Positions 2,551 through 59,517 of a stretch of 64,000 nucleotides of DNA are shown here, piece after piece; within the stretch, counting starts at the first letter, position 1, and each line of letters starts with the position of its first letter. Origin of the DNA: Bacillales bacterium. GTDB taxonomy: Bacteria > Bacillota_I > Bacilli_A > RF39 > UBA660. The DNA lies in the NCBI GenBank assembly GCA_016282375.1, contig JAEEKI010000011.1, forward strand, positions 1,691 through 65,690, read 5' to 3'. The translations under genes were made by a program, and so were the position numbers. Below the pieces are notes generated by a model. It was not told the origin of the DNA and did no database searches. It saw nothing but the letters and a program-made list of their open reading frames with translations.

Positions 2551-3465
2551 ATGAAGATTATAAAAAACAATTGTAAGAACCATGCATCTAGTGAAAAAAC
2601 TGATAATAAACAAATGAAAGATGTAATTAATCAAATTAATGATTATATTTTAAACAAACATCATACGTGTATTGAAGTACCCATTTTAATGGAACATAAT
2701 GTTCAAGATGGTGTATTTATCGAAGATAGTAAAATATTTAAGACAGATACAAAATCTATTCGTTATGATTTAACTTTGCCTTTATTTGTCTATTATGGCA
2801 ATAATAAAATTAAAGAAAAGTCATTATCTTATACTGTTGGACCTGTATTTAGAGTTGAAAAAGAAGATGCTACACATTTAAGTGAGTTTAATCAATATGA
2901 AATAGATATCTTTAATCCCGATTCAATTCGTGATGATGTCGATATCGGAAAATATATGAAAGAAATCGCAAGTATGTTTTTTGATGAAAAATCAATAACT
3001 TTAAGAATTAATTATCGTCCTTTAACTGAATGGTTAATGAGTTTATCAAATATTTCAGATCGTCAAGAATTCTACAATGAGTTAGATGCTATGGATAAAG
3101 AGTTTTCTGATGAAAAGTGTAAAGAAATGTTCAAAGAAAATTATGATATTGCTAAAAAGGTATTGCAAAGTTCATCAGTTGAGGAATTAGAAAAAATAAA
3201 GGAAGTTCCAAGAGAAATTGTTGATTATTTTCGAAATTATAAGGCTTTAGACGATAAATGTGTTATTCGTCCCTTACTTGCAAGAGGAGCTTTATATTAT
3301 GATGGTGTTGTTTATGAAATGTTTCATTCTAAATTAGGTTCCGCAATTATGGGTGGTGGACATGGTACAATGTTTGGAGCTACAAGAGTAGGTGCTTCAT
3401 TTGGATTAGAAAGACTTCTAATGTGTATTAACAAAACTAAACGTAGAAAAAAAGTTTTAGATTAG
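2551..3465 (+). CDS. HisRS/HisZ-like class II aaRS catalytic-domain paralogue lacking the anticodon-binding domain
   Basis: RYDLT, motif 2 (GPVFRVE..EFNQYEIDIF), RGALYYDGVVYE, GGG, motif 3 (GASFGLERL); about 304 aa. Confidence 0.8.
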   Translation: MKIIKNNCKNHASSEKTDNKQMKDVINQINDYILNKHHTCIEVPILMEHNVQDGVFIEDSKIFKTDTKSIRYDLTLPLFVYYGNNKIKEKSLSYTVGPVFRVEKEDATHLSEFNQYEIDIFNPDSIRDDVDIGKYMKEIASMFFDEKSITLRINYRPLTEWLMSLSNISDRQEFYNELDAMDKEFSDEKCKEMFKENYDIAKKVLQSSSVEELEKIKEVPREIVDYFRNYKALDDKCVIRPLLARGALYYDGVVYEMFHSKLGSAIMGGGHGTMFGATRVGASFGLERLLMCINKTKRRKKVLD

Positions 3466-3469
3466 TAGT

Positions 3470-4270
3470 ATGAATAAAAAAATTGTAGCTATCGGAGGTA
3501 CAAGAACTGGTAGAGTAAATCTTGAAGATAATAATTATGAGATTACAAATATTGATGAGGAAATTATTAATTTAACCGCTAAAGATAAACCGCATTTTTT
3601 GTTTCTTGCTCATGCCCAAATAGCATTTAATCCTGAAAATGAAAAAAGATATTTTGAGATAATGCAAAAAGCATATGGAGATTTATTAGGCTGCGAGTGT
3701 CGATGCATACTAATCTCAGATTTGTATGATAACCCCACTAAAGTTAAAGATTTTATTCAATGGGCCGATATTGTTTATGAAGGTTGGGGTTCAACTTTTG
3801 ATATGATATCCTTATGGAAAAAAACTGGTTTTGACAATTTATTAGAATCAGCTTGGAAGCAAGGAAAAGTTATGTGTGGCATTTCTGCTGGAGCTATGGC
3901 TTGGTTTACTTATGGAAATACTCTAGATAAAAGATTTGCTAATAGCGAATGTAACAAGGTCGAAGGATTAGGACTTATTGATGCTTACTTATCACCACAT
4001 TGTCAAAAACATGGTAAAGAAGAAAGTGAAATAAGAAGTTTAAAAAATCTTAACCAAGTTGGCATATCTCTAAGCGATTGCTCTGCCATTGAGATTGTTG
4101 ATAATCAATTTAAAGTATTAAAATCTGATGCTAGAGACTTATCATTTACTCCATATGCTTTAAAAAGATATTGGGAAAATGATGAATTATATGAAGAACA
4201 ACTAAATAATTTTACTGAATATGAATCATTAGATAGCCTATTAAGTAAAAGTAGAGTATTAAAAAAATAA
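3470..4270 (+). CDS. Peptidase E (S51 family, class I glutamine amidotransferase-like fold)
   Basis: IVAIGG, GISAGA nucleophile, GLGLI..PH motifs. Confidence 0.85.
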   Translation: MNKKIVAIGGTRTGRVNLEDNNYEITNIDEEIINLTAKDKPHFLFLAHAQIAFNPENEKRYFEIMQKAYGDLLGCECRCILISDLYDNPTKVKDFIQWADIVYEGWGSTFDMISLWKKTGFDNLLESAWKQGKVMCGISAGAMAWFTYGNTLDKRFANSECNKVEGLGLIDAYLSPHCQKHGKEESEIRSLKNLNQVGISLSDCSAIEIVDNQFKVLKSDARDLSFTPYALKRYWENDELYEEQLNNFTEYESLDSLLSKSRVLKK

Positions 4271-4280
4271 TACTTTGAAG

Positions 4281-4314
4281 AAGACTAGTTTAATCTAGTC
4301 TTTTTTTGTATAAT
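4281..4314 (+). terminator. CTAG-family terminator copy 2 fused to a -10 (TATAAT 4309)
   Basis: aagactag-tttaat-ctagtctt, T tract, tataat. Confidence 0.75.
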
Positions 4315-4331
4315 ATATAAGAGGTGTAGAA

Positions 4332-5444: not shown

Positions 5445-5489
5445 GAAATAACTTTTCTTTTTATGCAATAAAGAGTATTGGTAATAAAA

Positions 5490-6359: not shown

Positions 6360-6441
6360 TTGGTAATATCATAGTTTATGTAAAAGTAATTTAGACTTAA
6401 AATTTGACTATTTTGGCTTTTTGTGGTATAATGTCTAGCGT

Positions 6442-6560: not shown

Positions 6561-6591
6561 TGATTTACACACATGAAAGGGGGAATATTTT

Positions 6592-6894: not shown

Positions 6895-6942
6895 TTACAT
6901 CGCATGCACATTTAATTTATACCGATTCTGATAATTTTGGGG

Positions 6943-6978: not shown

Positions 6979-6996
6979 TTAAATAGGATGTTGGTT

Positions 6997-7611
6997 ATGA
7001 AAGAAGTAGAAAAGAAAATTCAAGTTGATGATAATAGATTTTTGATATACAGAATAACTAATGGATATGTTAAACCAACATATACTATAACAGAAGGCTT
7101 TTTAGAAGATGGCATTTTATTAAGTACCTATAGTTTATCTCAATGGGATGATTATGGTTTGGGCGGATGGATTAATAATGATGAAGGCATTGATAAGATA
7201 TCTTTTGAATTTGATAAAAATCATCCTTTATTCTTACCATTATTTCATTTATTAAATTATGATAATGAATTATTAATTGATGACGATGATACAAAAGAGA
7301 AAAATCAAAAGTATATGTTGGTACGTAGAGAAAAGGATAAGATATATCTCGATTTTGTCGATCATTTAGAAGATAGTGATTCTTTTGAAGAAAGATTTAA
7401 TGTTTTTATAAAAAATATATTGTTTGATGGTAGAAGTAAAATAGATCAAGAACAAAAAGATACAAAAAAAAGATTGCTTACTTTTTTTGCGGAAGCAAAT
7501 AATGCATTAATTAATGATTATAACCAAATAACAATGGAAGAGTCTCTTTTAGAAAATGCTACAAATGATGATTATGAACAAATGAAAAGGGTTTTTAAAA
7601 GAAAAATATAA
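6997..7611 (+). CDS. Hypothetical acidic protein with basic C-tail (KRVFKRKI)
   Basis: ORF with promoter and RBS; no family recognised. Confidence 0.75.
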   Translation: MKEVEKKIQVDDNRFLIYRITNGYVKPTYTITEGFLEDGILLSTYSLSQWDDYGLGGWINNDEGIDKISFEFDKNHPLFLPLFHLLNYDNELLIDDDDTKEKNQKYMLVRREKDKIYLDFVDHLEDSDSFEERFNVFIKNILFDGRSKIDQEQKDTKKRLLTFFAEANNALINDYNQITMEESLLENATNDDYEQMKRVFKRKI

Positions 7612-7620
7612 GCCATTTTT

Positions 7621-7656: not shown

Positions 7657-7676
7657 AATACTAGGATGGTATAGTT

Positions 7677-13651: not shown

Positions 13652-13719
13652 CTATTAATAACATAATCATCTTGATAAATAATGGATTACATTATATACT
13701 CATTATAGTAGGTGAGAAT

Positions 13720-15582
13720 ATGAAAAAGCAGAACACTATTATGATGATCATAACTGTGATAATCTTTTTATCTTTTGTGGCTTTTGCTACCTATGCGTAC
13801 TTTGCAACCGGTAATTTAAATGTAATTAATGTAGCAAATGCTAATACAATAACGGAAACAAATAATATGGTATTTGATGTAATTGGGGGAGGTATGTCCC
13901 TTAATATAACATTAGCTAAGATGGCGGATGGAGCTGCTAATAATAATTTAGTAGCTATTTCTAATAATACGACCTTAACGGTTAATTTTACACCCAATAC
14001 GGATTATAGTATGATATGTACCTATGATATTGTATATGAATGGACAAGCAGTGATAAATATACTACGCATAGTTCAGGAGTTACAGATAAAGAGTTTACC
14101 ATTCAAGCCTTTCAAACATATGTAGAAAATACAATTAATGGCGATGGTATGGTTACTCAGGAAACAGATTTATCAGCTTTAACATATAACAATAATAGTG
14201 TAACAATTGTAAGTGGAGCCCAAATATCAGGAACAGGGAACACAACTACTACCGCCGTATGGAATTTAATAAGTAGAGTTTATAATGTAAATGCGAGTCA
14301 AACAGCTTTAGAGGGAAAAAATTTTGTTGGTAAATTTAAGATAGCCAATGTCTCATGTGTAGCAGGTGAGGTTGAAACAACCGTTATAGCAAGTGGAAAT
14401 GTTAATGAAAATATCACCTGGACATTAGATGATAATGGCACTCTTAAAATAATGGGATCAGGAGAGATGCCAAGTTATAGTTTTAATGGTGCACCATGGT
14501 ATGCAAATAGAAGCTCTATAGAAAGCGTTGAAATTGGAAATGGAATTACTTCGATTAGTAGTTATGCTTTTAATTATTGTAGTAGTTTAACATCCATAAC
14601 CATTCCAAGCAGTGTAACAAGTATTGGTGCTTATGCTTTTCAAGGAGCAGGCCTAACTTCAATAACCATTCCAAACTTGGTAACATCATTGGAAGCAGGT
14701 GTGTTTTATAATTGTAAACACTTAACAAGTGTCACGCTGCCAAGTAATATAACTACCATTAGACCAATGGCATTTTCTGGTTGTAGTAGTCTAACCTCAA
14801 TAACCATTCCAAGTAGTGTAACAAGTATTGGTGATCTTGCTTTTCAATATGCAGGCCTAACTTCAATAACCATTCCAAACTCGGTAACATCAATTGGTGA
14901 ACAAGTGTTTCAATACTGCAGAAATTTAACCACCGTAACGTTATCAAGCAATATGACGACAATCACTCGTAATGCATTTTATGGATGTAGTAGTTTAGAG
15001 TCAATAACCATTCCAAGTAGTGTAACTACAATAGGCAATATGGCATTTTCTGGTTGTAGTAGTCTAACCTCAATAACCATTCCAAATACAGTGACCTCCA
15101 TTGATGCTGGTGCCTTTTCAAATAGCAGTCTAACGTCTATAACCATTCCTGATACAGTAACATCATTGGGATCAAGTGTGGTATCAAGCTGCAAAAAATT
15201 AACAAGTGCCACCTTGCCAAATACCATAACGACAGTCCCTGATAGCACATTTGATGGATGTAGTAGTTTAACATCGATAACCATTCCAAGCAGTGTAACA
15301 AGTATTGGCAGTTTTGCTTTTCAAGGAGTAGGCCTAACATCAATAACCATTCCAAGTGGTGTAACAAGTATTGGTAATTATGCTTTTCGAAATTCAGGTC
15401 TAACATCGATAACCATTCCAAGTAGTGTAACAAGTATTGGCGGTAATGCATTCAGAAATTGTGCTTCTTTATCATCTGTTATATATAATGGTAATACATA
15501 TACAACACAGTCTGGATTTACATCAGCATATGGAGGAACTTTAGGTTCAAATGTATTTACTGGTACTTCATTAGGAGAATAA
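13720..15582 (+). CDS. Surface protein: SipW-type signal (ATYAYF), conserved N-domain, BspA-type LRR_5 array
   Basis: Repeats of LTSITIPSSVTSIGxxAFxxC; WTLDDNGTLKIMGSGEM cap; N-domain shared with three paralogues. Confidence 0.9.
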   Translation: MKKQNTIMMIITVIIFLSFVAFATYAYFATGNLNVINVANANTITETNNMVFDVIGGGMSLNITLAKMADGAANNNLVAISNNTTLTVNFTPNTDYSMICTYDIVYEWTSSDKYTTHSSGVTDKEFTIQAFQTYVENTINGDGMVTQETDLSALTYNNNSVTIVSGAQISGTGNTTTTAVWNLISRVYNVNASQTALEGKNFVGKFKIANVSCVAGEVETTVIASGNVNENITWTLDDNGTLKIMGSGEMPSYSFNGAPWYANRSSIESVEIGNGITSISSYAFNYCSSLTSITIPSSVTSIGAYAFQGAGLTSITIPNLVTSLEAGVFYNCKHLTSVTLPSNITTIRPMAFSGCSSLTSITIPSSVTSIGDLAFQYAGLTSITIPNSVTSIGEQVFQYCRNLTTVTLSSNMTTITRNAFYGCSSLESITIPSSVTTIGNMAFSGCSSLTSITIPNTVTSIDAGAFSNSSLTSITIPDTVTSLGSSVVSSCKKLTSATLPNTITTVPDSTFDGCSSLTSITIPSSVTSIGSFAFQGVGLTSITIPSGVTSIGNYAFRNSGLTSITIPSSVTSIGGNAFRNCASLSSVIYNGNTYTTQSGFTSAYGGTLGSNVFTGTSLGE

Positions 15583-15603
15583 AATTCTTTATAATAATAA
15601 ATA

Positions 15604-15626
15604 AGACGGATGAAAATCCGTTTTTT
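15604..15626 (+). terminator. Intrinsic terminator (duplicated at ~18153-18175)
   Basis: acggat-gaaa-atccgt plus T tract. Confidence 0.75.
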
Positions 15627-15731
15627 AATTTGAATTTGAGAAACATCACAAGATTGCATTTCAATTATGGAAACATAATCATCTTGATAAATAATGGATT
15701 ATATTATATACTAATTATAATTGGTGAGAAT

Positions 15732-18131
15732 ATGAAAAAGCAGAACACTATTATGATGATCATAACTGTGATAGTCTTTTTATCTTTTGTAGTTTTTGCT
15801 ACCTATGCGTACTTTGCAACCGGTAATTTAAATGTCATTAATGTCGCAGCCTCTAATGTAATAACTGAGCAAAATAATATGGTATTTGATGTAATTGGGG
15901 GAGGTATATCCATTAATATGTCGTTAGCTAAGATGGCGGATGGCGCTGCTAATAATAATTTAGTAGCTATTTCTAATAATACGACCTTAACAGTTAATTT
16001 TACACCCAATACGGATTATAGTATGATATGTACGTATGATATCATTTATGAATGGACGAGCAGTGATAAATATACTGCTCATAGTCCAGGCGTAACAAAT
16101 AAAGAGTTTACGATTCAAGCCTTTCAAACATATGCGGAAAATACGGTTAATGGCGATGGCGTTGTTACTGAGGAAACAGATTTATCAACATTAACATATA
16201 CCAATAATAGTGTAACAATTGTTAGTGGAGCCCAAATATCGGGAAGTGGTAGCACAACTAGTACAGCCGTATGGAACTTAATAAGTAGAGTTTATAATGT
16301 ATATGCGAGTCAAACAGCTTTAGAGGGAAAAAACTTTGCAGGTAAATTTAAGATAGCCAATGTCTCATGTGTAGCAGGCGAGGTTGAAACAACCGTTATA
16401 GCAAGTGGAAATGTTAATGAAAATATCACCTGGACATTAGATGATAACGGCACCCTTAAAATAATGGGATCAGGAGCTATGCCAAATTATAGTTCTAGTG
16501 GTTCACCATGGTATGCAAATAGAAACTCTATAGAAAGTGTTGAAATTGGAAATGGTATTACTTCGATTGGCAAATACAGTTTTAACGGTGAGTCAAATTT
16601 GACATCTGTAACAATTCCAAGTAGTGTAACAGGTATTGGTGATTATGCTTTTCAAAATACAGGCCTAACATCGATAACCATTCCAGATACCGTAACTACA
16701 ATTGGAAACGCTGTTTTATCTAGTTGCAAAAATTTAACTTCTGCAACGTTACCAAGTAATATAACAACAATACCGACTTCTTTATTTTGGGGTAGTAGTA
16801 GTTTAACAAACTTTACTATTCCAAGTAGTGTAACAAGTATTGGTACAAATGCTTTTCTAAATACAAAACTAACATCGATAACCATTCCAAGTAGTGTAAC
16901 AAGTATTGGCAATTATGCTTTTGCAAATACAGACCTAACATCGATAACCATTCCAAGTAGTGTAACAAGTATTGGTAATTATGCTTTTCAAGATACAGGC
17001 CTAACATCGATAACCATTCCAGATACAGTAACTTCACTAGGAACCAATGTTTTATATTATTGCAATAATTTAACTTCTGCAACGTTACCAAGTAATATAA
17101 CAACAATACCTAAATCAACATTTGAAGGTTGTCGTAGTTTAACAAACTATACTATTCCAAGTAGTGTAACAAGTATTGGTAATAATGCTTTTCGTTCCTC
17201 AGGTTTAACGTCAATAACCATTCCAAGTAGTGTAACAAGTATTGGTGATTATGCTTTTTTTACTACAGGCCTAACATCAATAACCATTCCAAGTAGTGTA
17301 ACAAGTATTGGCAATTCTGCTTTTGCTTATACAGGCCTAACATCGATAACCATTCCAGATACCGTAACTTCACTTGGAACCGGTGTTTTGGGTGGCTGCG
17401 AAAATTTAACTTCTGCAACGTTACCAAGTAATATAACAACAATACCTAAACAAACATTTAATGGTTGTCGTAGTTTAACAAACTATACTATTCCAAGTAG
17501 TGTAACAAGTATTGGTGATTATGCTTTTCGAGAGACAGGCCTAACTTCGGTAACCATTCCAAGTAGTGTAACCACAATAGGTACGTATGCTTTTTCTGGA
17601 AGTAGTCTAACTTCGATAACTATTCCTGATACAGTGACAATTCTTGGAACCTATGCTTTTCAAAACTGTAAGAGTTTAACAAACGCAACGTTGTCAAGCA
17701 ATGTGACAACAATCCCTAATTATGCATTTGATGGTTGTAGTAGTTTAACAAACTGTACTATTCCAAGTAGTGTAACTAAGATTGGTGATTATGCTTTTCG
17801 AAATACAGGCCTAACATCGATAACCATTCCAGATACCGTAACTTCACTTGGAACCGGTGTTTTAAGTGGCTGCAAAAATTTAACTTCTGCAACGTTACCA
17901 AGTAATATAACAACAATCCCTAATTATGCATTTGATGGTTGCAGTAGTTTAACAAACTGTACTATTCCAAGCAGTGTAACAAGTATTGGTAATGTTGCAT
18001 TCAGAAATTGCTCTTCTTTATCATCTGTTATATATAATGGTAATACATATACAACACAGTCAGGGTTTACATCAGCCTATGGTGGAACTTTAGGTTCAAA
18101 TGTATTTACTGGTACTTCTTTAGGAACATAA
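15732..18131 (+). CDS. Tandem paralogue of 13720: SipW-type signal, N-domain, longer BspA LRR array
   Basis: Near-identical 5' region, 3' cap and flanks to the upstream copy; more LRRs. Confidence 0.9.
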   Translation: MKKQNTIMMIITVIVFLSFVVFATYAYFATGNLNVINVAASNVITEQNNMVFDVIGGGISINMSLAKMADGAANNNLVAISNNTTLTVNFTPNTDYSMICTYDIIYEWTSSDKYTAHSPGVTNKEFTIQAFQTYAENTVNGDGVVTEETDLSTLTYTNNSVTIVSGAQISGSGSTTSTAVWNLISRVYNVYASQTALEGKNFAGKFKIANVSCVAGEVETTVIASGNVNENITWTLDDNGTLKIMGSGAMPNYSSSGSPWYANRNSIESVEIGNGITSIGKYSFNGESNLTSVTIPSSVTGIGDYAFQNTGLTSITIPDTVTTIGNAVLSSCKNLTSATLPSNITTIPTSLFWGSSSLTNFTIPSSVTSIGTNAFLNTKLTSITIPSSVTSIGNYAFANTDLTSITIPSSVTSIGNYAFQDTGLTSITIPDTVTSLGTNVLYYCNNLTSATLPSNITTIPKSTFEGCRSLTNYTIPSSVTSIGNNAFRSSGLTSITIPSSVTSIGDYAFFTTGLTSITIPSSVTSIGNSAFAYTGLTSITIPDTVTSLGTGVLGGCENLTSATLPSNITTIPKQTFNGCRSLTNYTIPSSVTSIGDYAFRETGLTSVTIPSSVTTIGTYAFSGSSLTSITIPDTVTILGTYAFQNCKSLTNATLSSNVTTIPNYAFDGCSSLTNCTIPSSVTKIGDYAFRNTGLTSITIPDTVTSLGTGVLSGCKNLTSATLPSNITTIPNYAFDGCSSLTNCTIPSSVTSIGNVAFRNCSSLSSVIYNGNTYTTQSGFTSAYGGTLGSNVFTGTSLGT

Positions 18132-26123: not shown

Positions 26124-26482
26124 TGTATACTAAAGTTGTTTTTATTAATTATAGTGCAAGTGAACATTTATATCGAATAAGTATATTTTTAAAAAATGCC
26201 AAAGGTATTGTTCATATCAGCAGTAGTCCATTCGATATTGATAATTATCCATACTTGTCTCAAAAACTTAAAGAAGGTAATATGGTTTATATTAATGCTT
26301 ATGATGGTTATGTAGGTCTTGAAGAAAAAGAAGGACCATATAATGAAAAAGAAGTATTTAATTCATTATATGAGAGTCATAATGATATAATGTCAGAATT
26401 ACTTATTAATTTAGATAAGAACATTAGAGATGATAATCAAGTTCAAAGAAAACTTGTTAAGATAGGTAATTTTTATAAATAA
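26123..26482 (+). CDS. Hypothetical protein
   Basis: TAATG-coupled to the previous ORF. Confidence 0.7.
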   Translation: MYTKVVFINYSASEHLYRISIFLKNAKGIVHISSSPFDIDNYPYLSQKLKEGNMVYINAYDGYVGLEEKEGPYNEKEVFNSLYESHNDIMSELLINLDKNIRDDNQVQRKLVKIGNFYK

Positions 26483-27495: not shown

Positions 27496-28071
27496 ATGGA
27501 AGAAGAAACAATTTTTCAAGAACGTTGTGGTGCGGTAGGTGAACGTAATCCTGATGATCGTCAACTGTCTTTTACAATGCAATTAGATGAATTAGATAAT
27601 TCGTTAAGCGTTATTTTTTCGCTATTAGGATTAAAATCAAGAGATATTAAGAAAGTTATTTTAAAAAATGGGAAAAATCAATCAAATGTCGATATATTAA
27701 CATATGAAGGATACCTAGATCTTTTAGAAAAAGCTGTTGAGATTTTACCTAATTGTCCGATTGCTCCGCTTGATGAGGATTCCAAAGCATTAAGGTGCCG
27801 TCCAGATGCTCTAATAGCCAGTGATATATTAGGTGTTACCTTTTTTTGCTTTGCTGCTAAAGCAAGAGGGGAGAAAATTGTTTATAACTACAATGGGCAT
27901 GAAATAAAATCTGAGGAAATGCCTAATAATTTTGCTGATGCATTAGATTATGTCGCTTTAAAAGTATGTCAGGTTGAAGATTATGACACACGTTGTCAAC
28001 AATTATATCAAGAGATGGGTTTGCCTAAAGATTTTGACATAGAATTACCTGTTGCTAGTCGAAAAAGATAA
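27496..28071 (+). CDS. Hypothetical protein (ends SRKR)
   Basis: GAGGTG RBS, ORF. Confidence 0.7.
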   Translation: MEEETIFQERCGAVGERNPDDRQLSFTMQLDELDNSLSVIFSLLGLKSRDIKKVILKNGKNQSNVDILTYEGYLDLLEKAVEILPNCPIAPLDEDSKALRCRPDALIASDILGVTFFCFAAKARGEKIVYNYNGHEIKSEEMPNNFADALDYVALKVCQVEDYDTRCQQLYQEMGLPKDFDIELPVASRKR

Positions 28072-29003: not shown

Positions 29004-29125
29004 ATATTCCTCACAAGAATAGTTAATATGAAAACTATTCATCACGAATATACCATTTTTTGGCCTTTTTGTCTAGATTTGCTCGCTATGAAAATGATAT
29101 TATGCAACTGAAAGGAGGGATACAT

Positions 29126-30070
29126 ATGAAAATATTGTGTATCGGAAATATTGCTTACGATTGTACCGTAAGTGGTAAAGAATTCATTAAGGAAGGGGTA
29201 CGTAATAGTTATGACAATGTTAAGTTTAATACGGGAGGGCCTACTTCCAATGCGGCAAGCGTTCTAGCTAAGTATGGCGATGAAGTTGATTTTTATGGTC
29301 AAGTAGGTAATGATGCTAATGGTAAAAGAGCCCTTGAGGAGATGGCAAGCGAAGGTATTAATATTGAGAATGTTAATGTTTCAGATAATGTTATGACACC
29401 TTTTAGTTATGTAATTATTAATGAAACAAATGCTACTCGGACGATTTGTTCAATGCGTAGTAAATCCGATTATAATTGTCCTCAGATAGAGAAAATTAAT
29501 TATCAAAAAGGTTATGATTATATTTTAACTGATGGTAAATATCCTAAAGATGCGTTGAAATTAATGATTAATAATCCTCATGCTATTTCAATTATTGATG
29601 CAGGCAGAGTAAACGAAGGTATAAAATTACTTTGTCATTATGTTGATTACTTAATCTGTTCAGAGGATTTTGCCAATGATATGACCGGTTTAACTATTAA
29701 TGGTGATTATCAAAATGATTGTAATGTTTATAAACAATTACAAAATATCTTTTCTCAAGCTAAAATTACTATTACCGTAGGAGCTAAAGGTTATATTTAT
29801 GCTGAAAATGGTCAAATAATTACTAAACCCGCTTATGAACCAGAAGAACCCACGGTGGATACTAATGCGGCTGGGGATATTTTCCATGGTGCTTTTACTC
29901 ATGCTATAGCTAACGGTTATACATATGAAGAAAGTTTAGAGTTTGCTAATGTAACCGCTTCATTATCGACAACCAGAAGAGGTGGAAGAGCAAGTATTCC
30001 TGATTTAAATGAAGTCGAAGAGTCTTTACTAAATAATAACCATTCTTTTACGCGCTCTTTAAAAAAGTAA
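29126..30070 (+). CDS. PfkB family carbohydrate kinase
   Basis: GGPTSNAA, GQVGND, VDTNAAGDIFHGAF. Confidence 0.9.
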   Translation: MKILCIGNIAYDCTVSGKEFIKEGVRNSYDNVKFNTGGPTSNAASVLAKYGDEVDFYGQVGNDANGKRALEEMASEGINIENVNVSDNVMTPFSYVIINETNATRTICSMRSKSDYNCPQIEKINYQKGYDYILTDGKYPKDALKLMINNPHAISIIDAGRVNEGIKLLCHYVDYLICSEDFANDMTGLTINGDYQNDCNVYKQLQNIFSQAKITITVGAKGYIYAENGQIITKPAYEPEEPTVDTNAAGDIFHGAFTHAIANGYTYEESLEFANVTASLSTTRRGGRASIPDLNEVEESLLNNNHSFTRSLKK

Positions 30071-30780: not shown

Positions 30781-30833
30781 GTGTGACAATTTTTATTTAT
30801 ATGATATACTTAACATATAAGGTAGGTGTGCGT

Positions 30834-31958
30834 ATGAAAAGAAGTAACATAGTTTTATTAACAATTACTACAATTACATTACTAGCCTTAGTAATTGGTG
30901 CAACATATGCATACTTTGCTACCGGTAACCTAAATATCACAAATGTTGTCAATGCTAATACTGTGACAGAACGTAATAATATGGTCTTTGATACTCTAGG
31001 TGGGGGAATGAGTCTTAATATCACTGCATCTAATATGGTAGAAGCTAGACAAGGTAATGTGGCCGCGGAAAATAATACAACATTAACTGTTAACTTTACG
31101 GCCAATACTGATTATAGTATGGTATGTACGTATGACATCATCTATGAATGGACAAGTAGTGATAAATATACGGCCCATACAAGTGGGGTATCGTCAAATG
31201 AATTTACCATTCAAGGAACACTAGCTTCAAATGCACATGTTAGTGAAGGGACCAATAGTATTAAAAATGAAACAGATTTATCAACTTTATCATATACAAA
31301 TTACAGTGCCACGGTCGTAAGTGGTGCTAAAATAGATGGAACGGGCGATACGACGAATACCGCTGTATGGACCTTATCAAGTAAGTTTTATAATGTAGAT
31401 GCTAATCAAAGTGCTTTATCAGGAAAAACATATGCTGGTAAATTTATGGTAGCCAATGTGTCTTGCGTACTTGGATCTACCTTTCCAGGTCCAACAAGTT
31501 ATTGGTTTGATAGAAATACTTGTAAGCCTGGAAATCCGTGTGCTCATCCAAATTATGGAGGAACATTACAAAGTAATGGACTTGCAACAGGAAGTAATGT
31601 TTATATAGGTCAAGATACTAGCCAGTATTACGTATGTGCAACCATAAGTGGCCATGAAGTATGCTTATCACAACCGTATACGCAATATGGTTTAACTGGT
31701 CATACAGTAGATTCCGACTTCACAAGTGCGCAACAAGAAAGTGCAAAGCAAGCTTTATATCAAGTCTTTATCGATGCGGGAATTAATATTGATATCTCAG
31801 GTTGTCATTCTTATACTTGGATGCAAGCTGACTGTTCTGTTGACGACATTTACTGCGCGGTGCAAAGTAGCGGCTATGTTAAATGTTACGATATAAATGG
31901 TAACAAAGAGTGTCAGATTAATTCGCTTGGTCGTGCCAACTGTGATACTTATTTTTAA
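30834..31958 (+). CDS. Surface protein: SipW-type signal (ATYAYF), conserved N-domain, Cys-rich C-terminal domain
   Basis: N-domain aligns by eye with 13720/15732 up to NVSCV; unrelated Cys-rich passenger. Confidence 0.85.
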   Translation: MKRSNIVLLTITTITLLALVIGATYAYFATGNLNITNVVNANTVTERNNMVFDTLGGGMSLNITASNMVEARQGNVAAENNTTLTVNFTANTDYSMVCTYDIIYEWTSSDKYTAHTSGVSSNEFTIQGTLASNAHVSEGTNSIKNETDLSTLSYTNYSATVVSGAKIDGTGDTTNTAVWTLSSKFYNVDANQSALSGKTYAGKFMVANVSCVLGSTFPGPTSYWFDRNTCKPGNPCAHPNYGGTLQSNGLATGSNVYIGQDTSQYYVCATISGHEVCLSQPYTQYGLTGHTVDSDFTSAQQESAKQALYQVFIDAGINIDISGCHSYTWMQADCSVDDIYCAVQSSGYVKCYDINGNKECQINSLGRANCDTYF

Positions 31959-38282: not shown

Positions 38283-39329
38283 ATGGAAAAGATTATATCT
38301 TATGGTGAGTTACCATTTACAGATGGACAATCAGTTTATATGCGCATGGAAACTGATCCTAAATTATATATAAACTTAATTTCTAAAGGTTATAAGGTTG
38401 TTAATAACATATATGATGCCGATGCTTCGACTATTTTTATTACCGGTAGAAGACAATTATTAGGTTGTAAAAATGCTGAAGAATATAAAGAAATCGTTGA
38501 TAAAACGATTCAAAGTTTTTTATTAAAAAAGGGTATTGCTAAACCAAGTACGATGAAATTTTCCTTAGATGATTTACTTAATTATAGATATCAATTACCA
38601 TTTGTTTTAAAAAATGAACATCGTAATGGTGGTAAAGAAAAATTCTTAATAGCTAATGAACAAGATTATGAAAACTTAATAAATGCTTGTAATTGTTTAT
38701 TAGATAAGAATTTAATGTATTTAACATCATTAGGTAGCAATAATGCTGCGTGTCAAGTTAACTATGGTGAGTATTTAGAGGATAACTTCTTTGTTCAGGA
38801 GTATATTCCAACACCATCTGATTACAATACAACTGTTCGTCTTTTAACTTCCTCTTCGAATGATTTATTATATGGTGCTTTAAAGTATAATGAACCTGGT
38901 ACTTGTATGGATAATTCAACCTTACTAGAGTACTTACTACGTGATGTATATCCTTTGACCAATAAATCAATTGTTTCCAATACTTTATCGGGTGGGGAAA
39001 ACATCTTAATTGGTGAAGCAAATTATTCTGAATTTGAAAAAGGTTTATTAGCTAGTCATGGTATTCGCAATGAGCAATTTGATGAATTAGTTTCATCAAC
39101 ACAAGCTGTTCACGAAATGTGTCATTCTGAATTAGGATTATTATGTGGTTTTGATTTTATCTATGATATCAATCGTCAAAAGTGGTTTTTACTTGAATAT
39201 CATAGTAAACCAATGGTTGGTGATTATTCTAAAAGACAAGGCCTTGCTTACAATAACAAGGAAGATCGTTTAACGGCTGATGGACGAGTTAGAGCAACGG
39301 CTTTATCTTTAACATTAAAAAAACGATAG
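38283..39329 (+). CDS. ATP-grasp (RimK-like) ligase domain protein
   Basis: PFVLK...GGKEKFL, FVQEYI, GFDFI..WFLLEYH.KP. Confidence 0.65.
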   Translation: MEKIISYGELPFTDGQSVYMRMETDPKLYINLISKGYKVVNNIYDADASTIFITGRRQLLGCKNAEEYKEIVDKTIQSFLLKKGIAKPSTMKFSLDDLLNYRYQLPFVLKNEHRNGGKEKFLIANEQDYENLINACNCLLDKNLMYLTSLGSNNAACQVNYGEYLEDNFFVQEYIPTPSDYNTTVRLLTSSSNDLLYGALKYNEPGTCMDNSTLLEYLLRDVYPLTNKSIVSNTLSGGENILIGEANYSEFEKGLLASHGIRNEQFDELVSSTQAVHEMCHSELGLLCGFDFIYDINRQKWFLLEYHSKPMVGDYSKRQGLAYNNKEDRLTADGRVRATALSLTLKKR

Positions 39330-39371
39330 AAAAAAGGTTAATCCAAAATATAGAATGGATTAACCTTTTTT
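39330..39371. terminator. Bidirectional terminator, 16-bp perfect stem overlapping the end of the minus-strand gene
   Basis: aaaaaaggttaatcca / tggattaacctttttt. Confidence 0.8.
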
Positions 39372-40324
39372 AATACTCTTTGTCTTTTTTCTTTAAAAGT
39401 TCTTTCACGATTACTTCTTCTTCGTTCAGGGTCATCTTGTAACATAATAAATGTTTTTAACATTCGATTACGAACAATTGGGTCTTGAGGTACTACTGAA
39501 CGTCCAAATATGGTTGATGCGGTTGGAAATAATTGTGCAAATACATCAGCGTAATCAGTTAATTCAATTGGAGACATATTCGCTGTATTTTCATATAAGT
39601 CACCATATATTAAACCTAATGCATACTTTTTATAGTAAGCTATTTGGTAGTCATCATCGCAAATATCATCAAGTTCATTAAGAGGATCTATACCGTGACT
39701 AAAATAACGCCAAGTCATGCTTAGAGCATCATCATCACTATAACCATTACTGATATAATGATTATATATATTACAAATGATACGACGTAGTTTTTGATTG
39801 ATGGTATAAATATCATATTGATCACTAGGGTAAACCAAATTGATGAAACGATCAACAGCGTAATAATTACCATCTTCTTTGATTAGTTCTTTATTGTCAT
39901 TATATTTTTTATTATGGGCAGTATTGCTGTAAAAAGAACTTAAGATACTCTTACCAAATTTGCCATTTTCATAGAATAACTTAACTAATTCTTCGATAGA
40001 ACAATTAGCTAATGCCTTTAAAATAGGTTTATCTTTTTCATTATCGTAGTGGTTAATATAGTAATGTGAAGATAAAAAAGCAACTAAACGATTAATGTCT
40101 AATCCTTCATCAATTTGAATTAGGAAGTCGTAAATATAATTCATTAATTCATCAGTAAAGATCTGTTGCTCATATTTGCGAAGAAAAATATCATCTTTAA
40201 ACATATTGCCTTTTTCATCAGCATCAATATTTACTACTTCATTTTCACTAACATTATAGTTGTCTATTAATAAATATCGAAATTGTTCTTTTAATATTTC
40301 CATTAAATAATTTTCATATTCCAT
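39338..40324 (-). CDS. Hypothetical acidic protein with basic C-tail (RVLKK)
   Basis: Long ORF with AGGTG RBS; no family recognised. Confidence 0.75.
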   Translation of the reverse strand: MEYENYLMEILKEQFRYLLIDNYNVSENEVVNIDADEKGNMFKDDIFLRKYEQQIFTDELMNYIYDFLIQIDEGLDINRLVAFLSSHYYINHYDNEKDKPILKALANCSIEELVKLFYENGKFGKSILSSFYSNTAHNKKYNDNKELIKEDGNYYAVDRFINLVYPSDQYDIYTINQKLRRIICNIYNHYISNGYSDDDALSMTWRYFSHGIDPLNELDDICDDDYQIAYYKKYALGLIYGDLYENTANMSPIELTDYADVFAQLFPTASTIFGRSVVPQDPIVRNRMLKTFIMLQDDPERRRSNRERTFKEKRQRVLKKVNPFYILD

Positions 40325-40452
40325 ATAATTCACCTGTTTGCGACATATTATAATGAATTATTTCTAAAAAATAAAGTAGAAATTATCAATAAGGGAAATT
40401 TAATAATTTATGATATAATATAAATATAATAACAAGAGTAATGGAGGATAAT

Positions 40453-44755: not shown

Positions 44756-44935
44756 ATGAAAAAAGAACAATTACATGATTTGTTAAATGTCTATCGTAAT
44801 TATTTGTTTGCCATTCAGGTCAGAAAAGAATTTGGCGATAAATATGGCGATACGAAAGAAATAATGGAATACTACGAAGAATTATTAAAAAAAGAGCGAA
44901 TCTTAAAGAACAATAAACCTTTTAAAAAGCGTTGA
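44756..44935 (+). CDS. 59-aa hypothetical protein (MKKEQLHD...ERILKNNKPFKKR)
   Basis: ORF fills the intergenic gap; no clear RBS. Confidence 0.45.
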   Translation: MKKEQLHDLLNVYRNYLFAIQVRKEFGDKYGDTKEIMEYYEELLKKERILKNNKPFKKR

Positions 44936-55140: not shown

Positions 55141-55173
55141 TTGAGTTTTATTGATACTTTTATAGGAGGAACA

Positions 55174-56763
55174 ATGGTAGAAAAAGAATTTTTAAAAATG
55201 ATTGATACACAGTTAGATGCAATTATTCAAGAATCTGAATTATTAACTAAACAATTATTGTATTATCAAAGTGTTGATCGCGGTAGTAAACAAATTGGTT
55301 ATATTAATTTTCAATTAGCTATACTTCGAAAAAAACAACAAGTTTTAAAAAGTTTGACTGGTTTTCCAGCATATGCTCGTATCAAAGCTATGTCAGATGA
55401 AGAATTAGCTCAATATAAAACAACTCAAAAAGATATGTTGAATTCAGAAGTTCAAGAAACATTAGAACAAATAGGCCAAGTTCGAGAAAGAATTGCTGCT
55501 TTAAACAAAGAACAATATGAGCAATCTTTATCTTTTAGCGGATTAAGTGAAGAACAACGCACTGAAGCTATCACTAGAGGAAGACAAATAATTAGTGAAT
55601 TAGAATCTGAAGATAAAAAACTTCAGAAACTACTTGGTAGTATTTATGATCAAAAAGATCAATTGAAGAAGGTTAATCAAAAGCAACCAGGTGAAATTAG
55701 AAATGATATGCTATCTAAGGCCGAACGTAAAAAAACTATCGAAGATAGTGTAAATAGAGTTCTAAATAATCCTGTTTCGGATACAGAAAAGATGTTGGCC
55801 TCAGTGGCTGACGATCCTATTAAATGTCAACAAATGATTTATTTATTAACGTTATATGGAAGACTACTTTCTGCAGAAAAAAATATCAAAACACATTTGG
55901 AATTGCCCGAAGCATTACCTGATGAATTGCATGCATTGATAGTTAATCATTCCTCTTACGATGACAAAGGTAAATATGCTTATGATGTAGGAGCGATTGA
56001 AAAGATTTTTCAAGACTTCAGTGGACGTTTTGCTAAAGACAAAGGTGAGTTTAATTATCAATTTACAGAAGGTAAATTAATCGGTTTAGCGGGAAAAGAA
56101 AAAGATCGTTTCTACGATTCGATGGATGTTGGTTATTTAGTCCATCATCGTGATAAACTTGAATTAGGAAAAGTTGATCAAATATATGACTTAATTGATC
56201 GTCATAATCGTTTGGATTATAGAGTTATTAAAACTAAGGCTATTAAAGACCGAATTCAAAATTTAAATACCCTTATTCAGTTGGAAATAAACGAGGTTTA
56301 TCATCGCATTATTGCATGGTATTATGCTAATGTGCCTAAATCATTAGGCTTGCATAGTAAATTAGATTTCTTTTCAGAACAAACACTATGTGATTTCATT
56401 GAGAATTCTCAAGTAGATATTGATTTGTCTGAACAAGCTATGCATGATTTAAATAATCGTTTAATGAATGCCCAAAATGATTTGAATGCTCAAAAAGAGG
56501 GCTTTACTAACCAAAAGACTGAGGTAGCCGGTCGCATTCGTTCCATCGCAGGAGCCGAATTTGCTAAAACAGATATGCCTTCAGTTAAGGATGAAGTTAG
56601 TTACAATGAGAATTTGCTTTTAGAGGCAATTGGTCGTGTATATGCCGAGGAAATCATTCGTAATGTGACAAGAAGGGCTGGTCAAAAAGCGATTCAAGCC
56701 CAAGAAGCTTTAAGGCAAGGTCACGAACAAGAAAATAATGATTCATTAAATAGAAAAATATAA
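55174..56763 (+). CDS. Hypothetical coiled-coil-rich protein
   Basis: AGGAGG RBS; Q/E/K heptad-like segments. Confidence 0.75.
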   Translation: MVEKEFLKMIDTQLDAIIQESELLTKQLLYYQSVDRGSKQIGYINFQLAILRKKQQVLKSLTGFPAYARIKAMSDEELAQYKTTQKDMLNSEVQETLEQIGQVRERIAALNKEQYEQSLSFSGLSEEQRTEAITRGRQIISELESEDKKLQKLLGSIYDQKDQLKKVNQKQPGEIRNDMLSKAERKKTIEDSVNRVLNNPVSDTEKMLASVADDPIKCQQMIYLLTLYGRLLSAEKNIKTHLELPEALPDELHALIVNHSSYDDKGKYAYDVGAIEKIFQDFSGRFAKDKGEFNYQFTEGKLIGLAGKEKDRFYDSMDVGYLVHHRDKLELGKVDQIYDLIDRHNRLDYRVIKTKAIKDRIQNLNTLIQLEINEVYHRIIAWYYANVPKSLGLHSKLDFFSEQTLCDFIENSQVDIDLSEQAMHDLNNRLMNAQNDLNAQKEGFTNQKTEVAGRIRSIAGAEFAKTDMPSVKDEVSYNENLLLEAIGRVYAEEIIRNVTRRAGQKAIQAQEALRQGHEQENNDSLNRKI

Positions 56764-56853
56764 TACTAAAAACAACAAATTATATTATTTGTTGTTTTTT
56801 ATTTTCGCAGAAAGATTAGATATGTTAGAATATAATTATTAGAAAGGTTATTT

Positions 56854-57897
56854 ATGAAAGATTTACAACAAATATTGTTAGATGATGATATTGTTTCTTC
56901 GATTAACAACAATATGAATGATTTACTTACATTGATTCCTGAGTTAAAAAATATGATGGGTTTTGAACATCGTCATCCTCATCATCACTTAGATGTTTGG
57001 AATCATACTTTATTAGCTTTGAGTTTATCTAAAAAAGATTTTGATATTAGACTTAGTCTTTTGTTACATGATATTGGTAAACCATTTTCTTATCAAGAAG
57101 AAGAGGATGTAAGGCATTTTAAACATCATGCTGAGGAATCGGAAAAAATGGCTAGAACAATTCTTGAACGACTAGGTTATCCAGAAAAGTATATTGATGA
57201 GATATGTTTTTTAATAGGGAGTCATGACACTCCGATTGATGATGATTTGGTTAACTATCATTATGATCTTAGTGTTAAACTATATGAAGTACAAAGATGT
57301 GATGCATTAGCTCATAATCCGGAAAAGCTTGATAAAAGAATTGCTTATTTACATGAAACCAAAGGTAAATTACGTGCACGAAATAATATTTCTATTCCTT
57401 TGGAGGATTACAAAGACTATTTGGTAAATTTTTATCGTTATGAAAGTGATAATTCTTTAAGTCGGCGAATCAAAAGACGCAAAATGTTGTCTTTAAAATA
57501 TGATGATTTCTTCTTACAAAAGATAATAGATGATACTTATGCTTTTGTTAAAGATATTTTTAATAGTAAAGCTATTGATGTCGGATATTGCACTTTCTTA
57601 CTCAATGAAGAAAGTACACAATATATATCTTTAGGTTTAATAGATGATGGTTCTGCTGATAGTATTTTTATCGATAATCAGGGTAGAATGATTAGTACTT
57701 ATTTATTAAAAAGAATTTTCGGTGATACTTTGTGTATGGAAGTTCATCAAGAAGAAGTAGCCTTTAATACAAAGAATAAAGTAAATAACAATTATTGCTA
57801 TTCATTATACATGTCTGGTTTTCCAAAAAACATGCGTGAATTAAAAGAAATATTATTTGGAAGAACTAGAGTATTAAAAAAACATTCTATGATATAA
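56854..57897 (+). CDS. HD-domain protein (CCA-enzyme-HD-like) fused to an unknown C-terminal domain ending RVLKKHSMI
   Basis: HHHLDVWNHT, LLHDIGKP, HF..HA, CDA. Confidence 0.8.
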   Translation: MKDLQQILLDDDIVSSINNNMNDLLTLIPELKNMMGFEHRHPHHHLDVWNHTLLALSLSKKDFDIRLSLLLHDIGKPFSYQEEEDVRHFKHHAEESEKMARTILERLGYPEKYIDEICFLIGSHDTPIDDDLVNYHYDLSVKLYEVQRCDALAHNPEKLDKRIAYLHETKGKLRARNNISIPLEDYKDYLVNFYRYESDNSLSRRIKRRKMLSLKYDDFFLQKIIDDTYAFVKDIFNSKAIDVGYCTFLLNEESTQYISLGLIDDGSADSIFIDNQGRMISTYLLKRIFGDTLCMEVHQEEVAFNTKNKVNNNYCYSLYMSGFPKNMRELKEILFGRTRVLKKHSMI

Positions 57898-57908
57898 TTT
57901 AGATATAA

Positions 57909-58140
57909 ATGATAGGTAAATTTTGATAAAAGGGAATATTATAACACTTATAGTATTATTAATGGAGCACTAATGAGGCTATCTCTGGGAGGCTTTATGT
58001 TTGATAATGAGCAAGGTGTTATTGATAATGCTGCAATATGACTGAAACTATTTATGGCATAAAGATACTTGATAGTTTTGTGAGAAAGTTAAAAAAACAG
58101 GAAAAGACATTTAAGAGAAAAATATTTAGATTTACTAAGT
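57909..58140 (+). pseudogene. Degraded gene remnant
   Basis: Protein-like fragments in two frames (VNFDKREYYNTY...; ...VRKLKKQEKTFKRKI). Confidence 0.35.
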
Positions 58141-58185
58141 ATTTTTTTTATGTTAAAATATAGAACAATTTATATGGAGAATTAT

Positions 58186-58983
58186 ATGGCAATCATTAAT
58201 CCGTCAAATATTATAGTTAAGTTTATTGATAAAATGCATTATTTAGAAAATGAACATGTTCTAGGATGCTTTTTTTATGGTAGTTTCCTAACTGGTTTTA
58301 ATAATAGTAGTTCAGATATAGATTTACATGTAATATTTGATAATAGTGATACAAAACATATTATCAGAGGTAATGCTGTCATAGAGGGAGTAAGAATTGA
58401 ATATTTTGAAAAGCCTATTGATGATGTATATCTTTCGATAGATAATGATTTTAATAACCAAAGTAATGCTTTACTATCTATTATTGGTACTTCAAGAATC
58501 GTTTTAGATAAACATGGCGATTTATATAAACTTCAACAATATGCTCTTGAAAAATTTTCTCATCCGCTTCCACCACTTGATAGTGAGGATGCTAAAGAAT
58601 GTGTTTCTATTTTGAATAATCGCATGGAAAAATTAGCAAAAGCCGCTGATGAAAATAGTCCATATTTTAATCATTTATATCATTTAACAATTGAAAAGAT
58701 TCGCAAGTTTTATCATAAGTTAAATGGAATGCCGGAGTTACAAACTTCAAAAGTATACCGGGTATATACTGATGAAAGATATCGTGATTCCTTTTATAAG
58801 GACTATATACCTGAAAAAGAATTTGTTTCAATGTATATAGATGCTATATGTGATAATAGTTCTGATGTGAAAGAAAAATTAATAAAAGTACAAAAATTAT
58901 TTGATTTTGCTAAGAGAAATGTTGATTTAAATGACAAAGAATATCGCATTTTAATAAAATCAAGAAATAAAAGATACAATTAA
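58186..58983 (+). CDS. Pol-beta superfamily nucleotidyltransferase with helical C-domain
   Basis: FYGSFLTG...SDIDLHVI, RIEYF. Confidence 0.8.
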   Translation: MAIINPSNIIVKFIDKMHYLENEHVLGCFFYGSFLTGFNNSSSDIDLHVIFDNSDTKHIIRGNAVIEGVRIEYFEKPIDDVYLSIDNDFNNQSNALLSIIGTSRIVLDKHGDLYKLQQYALEKFSHPLPPLDSEDAKECVSILNNRMEKLAKAADENSPYFNHLYHLTIEKIRKFYHKLNGMPELQTSKVYRVYTDERYRDSFYKDYIPEKEFVSMYIDAICDNSSDVKEKLIKVQKLFDFAKRNVDLNDKEYRILIKSRNKRYN

Positions 58984-59007
58984 GATAAATTAATAGGAGG
59001 TAATAAT

Positions 59008-59517
59008 ATGAACAATAATGAAAGAATGTCTTCTTTTACATATGTTAATAATTTTAAAAAGAAAGATAATGATACATATATAGATGTGAACTATATTAGT
59101 TCAACACCTATTGATAAGGAAGAATACAAAAGATTGCATAGTGTTCTTGACCAATACTTTGTTAATGATAGCTGTGAAGATATCGTTGCTATTGTTATGC
59201 AAATTAAGCAATTATTTGTAGACTATGATGAAAAAAGATTAATGGTTAGTCTTAGAAATAATGATTTTTTTCAAAGAGTAGAGTATATCGATGGTTTTGT
59301 TGATAGTTGCTATTTATCTAGTACGAATTGGGATGATGCCATATCTGTTTCCTTTGATCATAAAGGTACAGATATTCGTTATAAGAAAGATCGTCAATAT
59401 GTTGAATCATTTGAAAATGTCATAAATATATACGATGAACTAAATACCTATTTTCTGAAGTTATTTCAATTACGCTTATTAGAAAAGAAAGATGAGATGA
59501 AAAGAATAAGAAGATAG
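59008..59517 (+). CDS. Hypothetical protein
   Basis: AGGAGG RBS, ORF. Confidence 0.7.
   Translation: MNNNERMSSFTYVNNFKKKDNDTYIDVNYISSTPIDKEEYKRLHSVLDQYFVNDSCEDIVAIVMQIKQLFVDYDEKRLMVSLRNNDFFQRVEYIDGFVDSCYLSSTNWDDAISVSFDHKGTDIRYKKDRQYVESFENVINIYDELNTYFLKLFQLRLLEKKDEMKRIRR

Follow-up and report, generated by a model that had tools for sequence, protein, structure and literature searches.

Could a short basic tail at the C-termini of unrelated proteins be a sorting signal in an uncultured bacterium? The question is raised by a stretch of 64,000 nucleotides (here called the window) from a Bacillales bacterium of the RF39 lineage (contig JAEEKI010000011.1 of assembly GCA_016282375.1), in which the pentapeptide RVLKK lies at or near the C-termini of three proteins, i.e. 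a peptidase of family S51, an orphan and a fusion protein with an HD domain. The original prediction took these tails, together with a series of looser variants, to tag an effector-like set of enzymes for an unrecognised route of export or turnover. If true, such a hidden tag would mean a new sorting route in uncultured small-genome bacteria. Our analysis turned up neither a portable appended tag nor an effector set, and most of the pattern is already known as the documented lysine and arginine bias of protein ends, which makes the finding largely ordinary. On balance we lean slightly towards the reading that no single portable export or turnover tag is common to the tails. What remains is small and testable: in this genus one exact pentapeptide stands at the ends of unrelated proteins with a frequency far above that of matched controls.

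We propose that the pattern has three layers. The lysine- and arginine-rich ends reflect a universal compositional bias of bacterial C-termini; the order of basic and hydrophobic residues within them, a pattern seen in the data, may come from helix spacing; and the three RVLKK peptides of the window are of separate origin.

The genome holding the window (G000, with the window at C15:1691-65690) is an assembly of 1,083,921 bases in 24 contigs that is 85% complete, and the G+C content of the window is 26-31%. Its genus comprises 22 genomes, G000 included, all of them small (0.9-1.3 Mb). Genes were called by a purpose-written open reading frame (ORF) caller based on codon scores, which gave 1059 genes in G000 at a coding density of 91.9%, and the C-termini of the called proteins are set by the stop codons only. 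Proteins shorter than 60 amino acids (aa) were excluded from the tail statistics, leaving 1043. Four congeners (G011, G003, G005 and G008) were represented by partial samples of 1313 proteins, analysed as 20-kb pieces and being kin rather than independent; pooled with G000 they give 2356 proteins in 1218 families. The features discussed are collected in Table 1.

Table 1. Positions of the genes, tails and hairpins discussed, in window coordinates except for the last row
Feature	Position	Strand	Remarks
Peptidase_S51 (PepE-like) gene	3470..4270	+	266 aa; Pfam PF03575, 1.1e-30; ends ...LDSLLSKSRVLKK
RVLKK codons AGAGTATTAAAAAAA	4253..4267	+	exact C-terminus of the S51 peptidase
9-bp RNA hairpin at the S51 end	4253..4276	+	R-V-L codons pair with the stop codon and 6 downstream bases; K-K codons form the A6 loop
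Stronger second hairpin with a U-run behind it	4277..4306	+	terminator-like
331-aa orphan	39338..40333	-	no Pfam match; ends ...KRQRVLKKVNPFYILD
Conserved C-terminal block VLKKVNPFYILD of the orphan	39341..39376	-	holds VLKK of the RVLKK at 39365-39379
16-bp hairpin with A- and U-run flanks	39330..39371		lies where the ATP-grasp-like gene and the orphan converge; z=-4.06
HD fusion	56854..57897	+	347 aa; N-terminal HD (Pfam HD 4.2e-8, residues 47-131) and C-terminal domain of unknown family
C-terminal domain of the HD fusion	57409..57894	+	residues 186-347; member of a mostly stand-alone ~165-aa protein family; RVLKK at 57868-57882
RRKKVLD	end at 3465		protein end
KRVFKRKI	7585..7608	+	tail of the 207-aa acidic orphan, 6988-7611
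QRKLVK	end at 26482		6 aa before the protein end
SRKR	end at 28071		protein end
TRSLKK	30050..30067	+	tail of the PfkB kinase, 29060-30070
LTLKKR	end at 39329		protein end
ERILK..KKR	end at 44935		end of a 59-aa ORF
SLNRKI	end at 56763		protein end
Gram-positive-type type IV secretion cluster	G000:C1:141001-159000 (locus L411)		outside the window

Family histories of the RVLKK tails

All three pentapeptides were confirmed by translation: 4253-4270(+) reads RVLKK*, 39338-39379(-) reads RVLKKVNPFYILD* and 57868-57897(+) reads RVLKKHSMI*. RVLKK thus stands at the exact end of the S51 peptidase, eight residues from the end of the 331-aa orphan and four from the end of the HD fusion. The proteins had been described as unrelated orphans, which holds for the one without a Pfam match, while the other two have the Pfam domains Peptidase_S51 (1.1e-30) and HD (4.2e-8). 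Their acidic bodies (isoelectric points of 4.5-5.7) and the lack of a hydrophobic stretch at the N-terminus (maximum 15-residue hydropathy <=1.3) were described correctly, and this is the look of ordinary cytoplasmic proteins.

The S51 peptidase gene is accessory, being present in two of the 41 related genomes searched, G000 included. Its homologues number 301 at E<=1e-10, and among the best 120 of the 301 the conserved core stops at ...LLSK, beyond which the tail is hypervariable and 0-12 aa long, e.g. QPT, NNKKKKTKSNKI, SNITKKR, KK or none. RVLKK, R-phi-phi-K-K and R-x-phi-K-K (phi, a hydrophobic residue) occur in 0 of 119 homologues taken from these best 120. The sole homologue in a congener, G013 (locus L002, G013:C74), has its C-terminal codons masked as N and its tail is unreadable. 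In the AlphaFold2 (AF2) model of the peptidase (predicted local distance difference test, pLDDT, of 92) the last helix covers residues 254-258, and residues 259-266 are coil at a pLDDT of ~50. The last 20 residues hold four basic and three acidic ones, a net charge of about +1 as counted by eye. The sequence comparison shows the RVLKK of the peptidase to be one draw from a hypervariable tail.

The 331-aa orphan has homologues in three of the 26 genomes searched, G000 included. Its orthologue in G003 is 42% identical overall and identical at 12/12 positions over the C-terminal block, and a distant homologue in G004 carries VLNKINPLWMLD at the same place. In view of the 12/12 identity, the RVLKK of the orphan is part of a longer family-specific block, and the peptide VLKKVNPFYILD may serve in docking.

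The tail of the HD fusion belongs to its C-terminal domain. The 119 HD homologues listed span at most 59% of the fusion, and its C-terminal half is matched by none of them; a region search with this half among proteins of 190-608 aa returned the query itself as the sole match. The ~165-aa family to which the domain belongs has 88 representatives at E<=0.001, with tails such as ...LFGKTRVLK, ...GKIKLLKKVR, ...SKVLK and ...KKVLVKK, and the family ends in ...LFGK.K.L.K. on the whole. Since the basic-hydrophobic tail recurs across the family, the tail of the HD fusion is the family's own. In the AF2 model of this domain (pLDDT 94) the last helix covers residues 142-150, and residues 151-162 are coil at a pLDDT of 64-72. 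The domain has no Pfam match, and Foldseek found no fold for it in the PDB at E<=0.001.

The ~165-aa domain is also joined to various other partners in other genomes. The HD fusion itself lies in a variable island, seen when 55141-59517 is compared with G003:C13:5919-11042 (L076/L077); the island follows directly after a conserved ABC permease, and its flanks are syntenic. It holds a 540-aa orphan, the HD fusion, a nucleotidyltransferase and a 169-aa orphan in the window, and two ~750-aa paralogous orphans ending in RVLKK and two small ORFs in G003.

Homologue alignments of the S51 peptidase, the HD domain family, the orphan block and the PfkB kinase show no common tag, which speaks against a lineage-specific appended tail as originally proposed. 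Judged by these alignments, the three RVLKK tails are shown to have separate histories, i.e. a domain-family type in the HD fusion, a family block in the orphan and a hypervariable draw in the S51 peptidase.

A fourth RVLKK tail of G000 is found in a hybrid histidine kinase (C19, 591 aa), with RVLKK at residues 586-590. The match to the receiver domain ends at residue 585 of 591 and covers profile positions 1-107 of 111. Receiver domains of response regulators end their helix alpha-5 in the pattern ...R-phi-x-x-L-R-R, and the RVLKK of the kinase, which follows directly after the receiver-domain match, resembles this helix end. The likeness accounts for the kinase only; in the two modelled proteins the motif is coil rather than helix.

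Composition and residue order of protein ends

The variant tails listed by the original prediction are all present (Table 1), but they are not above chance. At least three lysines or arginines occur in the last eight residues of 17 of the 61 window proteins and of 184 of the 982 other proteins (Fisher p=0.093); strongly basic tails are therefore not significantly commoner in the window, and the variants listed are background. The statement that the housekeeping proteins of the window lack the R-hydrophobic-K pattern is literally true, yet PyrG ends in NNKK, RbgA in ICK, TopA in NEK and L19 in KVKERN. Of the variants examined in relatives, the tail of the 207-aa protein is conserved: its orthologue in G003 is 66% identical overall and identical over the last ten residues, QMKRVFKRKI. 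The TRSLKK tail of the PfkB kinase (Pfam PfkB 1.1e-40) is not conserved, since the PfkB homologues in the genus (29-33% identical) have P/Q/T-rich, non-basic ends.

Basic residues are enriched at protein ends throughout G000. Over its 1043 proteins the frequency of lysine at position -1 is 0.255 versus 0.083 in bulk (3.05x), arginine is enriched 1.93x and threonine is depleted to 0.19x, and the hydrophobic residues AVILMFWY make up 0.293 at this position versus 0.426 in bulk. The basic gradient extends inward to about position -10. Lysine at -1 reaches 0.23-0.34 in G011, G003, G005, G008 and two genomes of other families. We suppose that the lysine-rich proteome and the AT-rich genome (8.5% lysine, ~29% G+C) add to the bias in G000.

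These values agree with a known bias. Weber et al. (Mol Syst Biol 2020, PMC7246954) surveyed 1,582 bacterial genomes and report a lysine enrichment of 2.32x, an arginine enrichment of 1.76x, a gradient reaching to position -20 and an epistasis of KK with the stop codon; there the bias is independent of COG class, and the identity of the C-terminal residue is linked with protein level and degradation rate. Our data resemble this description in that lysine and arginine are raised at -1 with a gradient, KK before the stop is favoured, threonine and hydrophobic residues are depleted, and functional class makes no difference. That bias is compositional and predicts no particular pentapeptide, and the preference for RVLKK over RLVKK in the genus is unaccounted for by it. 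The broad basic tail is the known, universal enrichment of lysine and arginine at bacterial C-termini, and basic tails on orphan proteins of AT-rich genomes should not be taken as signals.

Nor is the basic tail an accessory trait, contrary to what the original comparison of accessory and housekeeping genes had suggested. The mean number of lysines and arginines in the last ten residues is 1.73 in 166 conserved proteins, i.e. those for which 400 kb sampled from congener G011 encode an orthologue, versus 1.80 in the 877 others (p=0.65). Within the window the means over the last eight residues are 1.68 for the 25 proteins with a homologue in the samples of relatives and 1.89 for the 37 without (p=0.65). 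Terminator A-tracts were rejected as the general cause of lysine-rich ends because lysine at -1 is as frequent as 0.245 in the 416 genes followed by a same-strand gene within 25 nucleotides, which are internal to operons; the frequency is 0.298 at gaps of 26-100 nucleotides (n=295) and 0.224 in the others (n=312).

The tails also have a preferred order of residues. We compared the ten arrangements of three basic (B) and two hydrophobic (H) residues with the means of column shuffles. In G000 the arrangements BHHBB and BBHHB are favoured (13 observed versus 3.9 in the shuffles, and 12 versus 3.5) and BHBHB is avoided (2 versus 3.6). The same three arrangements give 14 versus 6.8, 16 versus 6.0 and 0 versus 6.2 in the four congeners, and 6 versus 3.5, 6 versus 3.4 and 0 versus 3.3 in two genomes of other families. 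The excess of BHHBB is weaker in internal windows (1.30x). This preference of residue order is generic, being present in every genome sample examined, and is not lineage-specific. The i, i+3, i+4 spacing of the basic residues in the basic-hydrophobic-hydrophobic-basic-basic arrangement would match the periodicity of an amphipathic helix.

Exact RVLKK ends in the genus and their possible readers

Exact RVLKK ends are a different matter. G000 has five occurrences of RVLKK in its 1059 proteins versus 0.41 expected, four of them within the last 13 residues, so the enrichment that the original prediction anticipated is there. Any 5-mer reached four tails in two of 300 column shuffles of G000. As the choice of RVLKK was fixed by the window, other genomes provide an independent test. 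The four congeners have RVLKK in two tails versus 0.04 expected, both from one pair of G003 paralogues, and R-x-phi-K-K is observed eight times versus 2.6 expected. Statistically, then, the genus does have too many exact RVLKK ends; this excess is modest and unexplained. We consider it most likely a by-product of the residue order of the tails and the turnover of gene ends, rather than evidence for a sorting route.

Several observations weigh against this reading. A pattern search for RVLKK followed by a stop in the 22 genomes found nine real ORF ends in six unrelated families (four more matches were spurious), namely S51, AMP-binding (two genomes), nucleotidyl transferase, NUDIX, HAD (two genomes) and the G003 orphans. 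The same search found one family for RLVKK, in which V and L are swapped, and two each for KLQKK, NKRIK and LKEVK, three controls picked for already having two families in the pooled sample and gaining none elsewhere. From position-specific frequencies 0.15 RVLKK ends are expected per 23,000 proteins, approximately the content of the 21 other genomes, and the controls have similar expectations. Coincident ends are commoner than this naive model allows: 13 exact C-terminal pentapeptides are each common to two BLAST-unrelated families in the pooled tails, where a hand estimate expects about two. We therefore allowed a five-fold inflation for tail coincidences, and the probability of at least five families is still ~1e-3. 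For the sibling pattern R-phi-phi-K-K before a stop, the 23 matches checked of more than 140 contain two real gene ends, both of one family. In the pooled set RVLKK is the top tail 5-mer, with five families in tails and one elsewhere, and RVLK is the most tail-biased 4-mer, with nine families in tails and 12 elsewhere versus 58 and 653 for its class. In the four relatives RVLK has five tails and four bodies, where the other members of its class together have 32 and 487; with a pair of paralogues and a pair of orthologues each counted once, three independent tail families remain, for which a hand binomial gives ~0.01. The DNA word AGAGTATTAAAAAA has four copies in G000, each of them on the coding strand and in frame 0, which indicates that the excess acts at the protein level. 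Finally, the tails are predicted to be exposed and flexible in both AF2 models, as a linear motif would need.

These observations lend some support to another explanation, namely that RVLK(K/N), placed terminally or close to the C-terminus, acts as a genus-specific short linear motif on the flexible tails of unrelated, mostly accessory cytoplasmic enzymes, read by one partner, be it the coupling protein of a type IV secretion system (T4SS) for export, a Clp/Lon-type unfoldase for turnover or an anionic membrane surface. Apart from the six families against one or two for the controls, the repeat of the RVLK tail bias in relatives, the frame-0 words and the disordered tails of the two models, the motif is favoured by the synonymous codons, which differ between families (GTA/GTG/GTT, TTA/CTT/CTA) and argue for identity at the protein level. 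The tail is kept beyond the protein average in two families, i.e. the 12 residues of the orphan and the QMKRVFKRKI of the 207-aa protein; carriers such as the S51, RmlA-like and HAD proteins are accessory; and possible readers, a T4SS coupling protein and ClpP, are encoded in the genome. Much stands on the other side. Homologues would be expected to retain the motif if it governed location, yet it is absent from the 119 S51 homologues, the RmlA-like homologue in G020 ends in ...LVKNERRIK and the PfkB tails are non-basic. AMP-binding, nucleotidyl transferase, NUDIX, HAD, S51 and histidine kinase proteins, the carriers, are all ordinary enzymes, and the RVLKK loci are neither linked to the T4SS locus nor do they have common neighbours. 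Five residues hold very little information, and once the three window cases are set aside, the pooled sample holds two tail families for RVLKK and three for LILKK. We regard this explanation as doubtful, though it is the strongest of the rivals.

The carriers are sporadic as well. Beside the S51 peptidase in two of 41 genomes, the RmlA-like protein occurs in two of 22 and the HAD protein in two of 22, the latter having in G000 a homologue of 30% identity. RVLKK ends were not globally preferred in a small and arbitrary sample of 120 prokaryote loci, where gene ends made up 5 of 73 matches for RLLKK, 3 of 20 for RLVKK, 2 of 21 for RVLKK and 2 of 6 for RVVKK; as RVLKK ends are no commoner than their siblings in this sample, the excess is specific to the genus. 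A search of the literature for the string RVLKK gave nothing on bacterial protein sorting, as judged from the listing.

The T4SS offers one candidate reader for such a motif. The VirD4-type coupling ATPase that the original prediction suggested to look for is indeed present in G000, inside a Gram-positive T4SS cluster. The coupling protein (770 aa, PF02534, 189 bits) is accompanied by a 595-aa VirB4-like ATPase, a 1018-aa M23 peptidase/lysozyme hydrolase, a weak PrgI-like match (20.7 bits, under the Pfam cut-off of 27), and a 736-aa protein and several small proteins without a Pfam match. The coupling protein was found in 19 of the 21 genus genomes tested, G000 included and G019 outside the set, so that the RVLKK excess occurs in a lineage keeping a conjugation-type secretion system in nearly every genome. 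We speculate that RVLK(K/N)-COOH might be a genus-specific motif repeatedly acquired on floppy tails (those of the S51 peptidase, AMP-binding enzyme, nucleotidyl transferase, NUDIX, HAD, HD fusion and orphans) and read by one partner, most attractively the Gram-positive T4SS coupling protein and otherwise an AAA+ protease. This specific version is unlikely in our judgement, but if true, RVLK(K/N)-COOH would be the first protein-substrate signal for a Gram-positive T4SS.

The signals of VirB/D4 T4SS substrates are positively charged, arginine-rich stretches in the C-terminal 20-50 residues. The RVLKK tails are like them in being C-terminal, basic and exposed in a genome that encodes a coupling protein. 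They differ in being lysine-based, five residues long and of little net charge over the last 20 residues, the consensus being unscored and the S51 tail read by eye. The system differs too, since the T4SS of G000 is of the Gram-positive conjugation type, as judged from the weak PrgI match, the VirB4-like ATPase and the M23/lysozyme hydrolase, and we know of no protein effectors of this type. The T4SS lies on another contig than the carriers of the window, and the RVLKK loci are without common neighbours. A correlation between coupling protein and motif is uninformative, as the protein is near-universal in the genus, being present in seven of seven carrier genomes and 11 of 13 non-carrier genomes. 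The idea of an effector-like enzyme set tagged for export or turnover thus finds no direct support and is mostly contradicted, the carriers being ordinary enzymes and the T4SS lying elsewhere.

The constancy of the coupling protein across a genus of ~1.1-Mb genomes is unusual for a conjugation module.

Other known systems resemble the tails in part. The ClpX recognition motif C-M2, as in MuA ...RRKKAI, has basic residues clustered ahead of a last residue that is small or hydrophobic. KRVFKRKI, SLNRKI and ERVLKKI are alike in having a basic cluster before a hydrophobic last residue, whereas RVLKK ends in lysine. ClpP is present in G000 (239 bits), though nothing connects it with the motif, and the ClpX zinc finger (PF06689) was not found in this genome, which is 85% complete and in which the search did not extend to other Clp ATPases. 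The C-terminal membrane-targeting amphipathic helices of MinD and FtsA are ~8-15 residues long. Like the RVLKK tails they sit at the very C-terminus of cytoplasmic proteins and alternate basic with hydrophobic residues, whereas RVLKK is a five-residue element and is coil after the last helix in both AF2 models (pLDDT 50-72).

Two further candidates were rejected. A tripartite sorting signal such as LPXTG does not fit carriers without a hydrophobic N-terminus and without a membrane helix before the tail, and for an encapsulin cargo-loading peptide the shell gene (PF04454) was not found in G000, an assembly 85% complete.

An explanation at the RNA level does not need a reader of the protein. The codons of R-V-L-K-K-stop (AGA GUA UUA AAA AAA UAA) would form the 5' arm and the loop of a hairpin enclosing the stop codon, or would abut the A-tract of a terminator, and gene ends would converge for the formation or stability of RNA 3' ends. 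The S51 end has such a stem (AGAGUAUUA, the A6 loop and UAAUACUUU), and the folding of 4244-4320 gives z=-3.9. A hairpin of the same architecture, its core stem 10-11 bp long and accompanied by a U-tract (z=-3.5), is found at the two G003 paralogues ending in RVLKK, and the K-K-V-N-P codons of the orphan are one arm of the 39330..39371 hairpin; UUA...UAA is, moreover, self-complementary by construction. A downstream complement is, however, found in two of the six exact-end families and not in G020, G017, G015, G007, G012 and G021, and the end of the HD fusion has no fold (z=0.01). The palindrome sets Leu opposite the stop codon and leaves Arg-Val free, and lysine-rich ends are equally common in operon-internal genes. 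The orthologue of the orphan in G003 retains the peptide with different DNA and no hairpin, which argues that the block is conserved at the protein level. We therefore consider a common cause at the RNA level very improbable. The original prediction had itself cautioned that overlap with terminators might produce the tails; such overlap gives a partial account of two of the three window cases and does not apply to the end of the HD fusion.

At the level of DNA, a shared repeat or mobile-element end is dismissed because the flanks of all RVLKK sites are unrelated and the loci have no common neighbour genes, and an uptake or recognition word because AGAGTATTAAAAAA has just its four copies, always in frame 0 on the coding strand.

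Other features of the window and the genomes

Several large proteins encoded at 13672-18131, 30783-31958 and 63335-64000 (all on the + strand) have a common N-terminal module of ~230 residues. The module opens with a hydrophobic, pilin- or TasA-like segment and is followed in two of the proteins by long leucine-rich (ITIPSSVTSIG) repeats.

Outside the window, at G000:C16:44552-47657, a WXG100 gene (30 bits) adjoins a gene whose 1540-aa product matches the FtsK/SpoIIIE domain twice, a pairing that resembles a type VII secretion (EssC/EsxA-like) locus.

TGA is a stop codon in the genus of the window, ending 114 of the 1059 G000 genes. A relative of the same class, G035, reads TGA as sense: in G035:C1:1-400000 (loci L117-L136) gene calling under translation table 11 yields 671 short genes at a coding density of 68%, and under table 4 it yields 346 genes at 89%.

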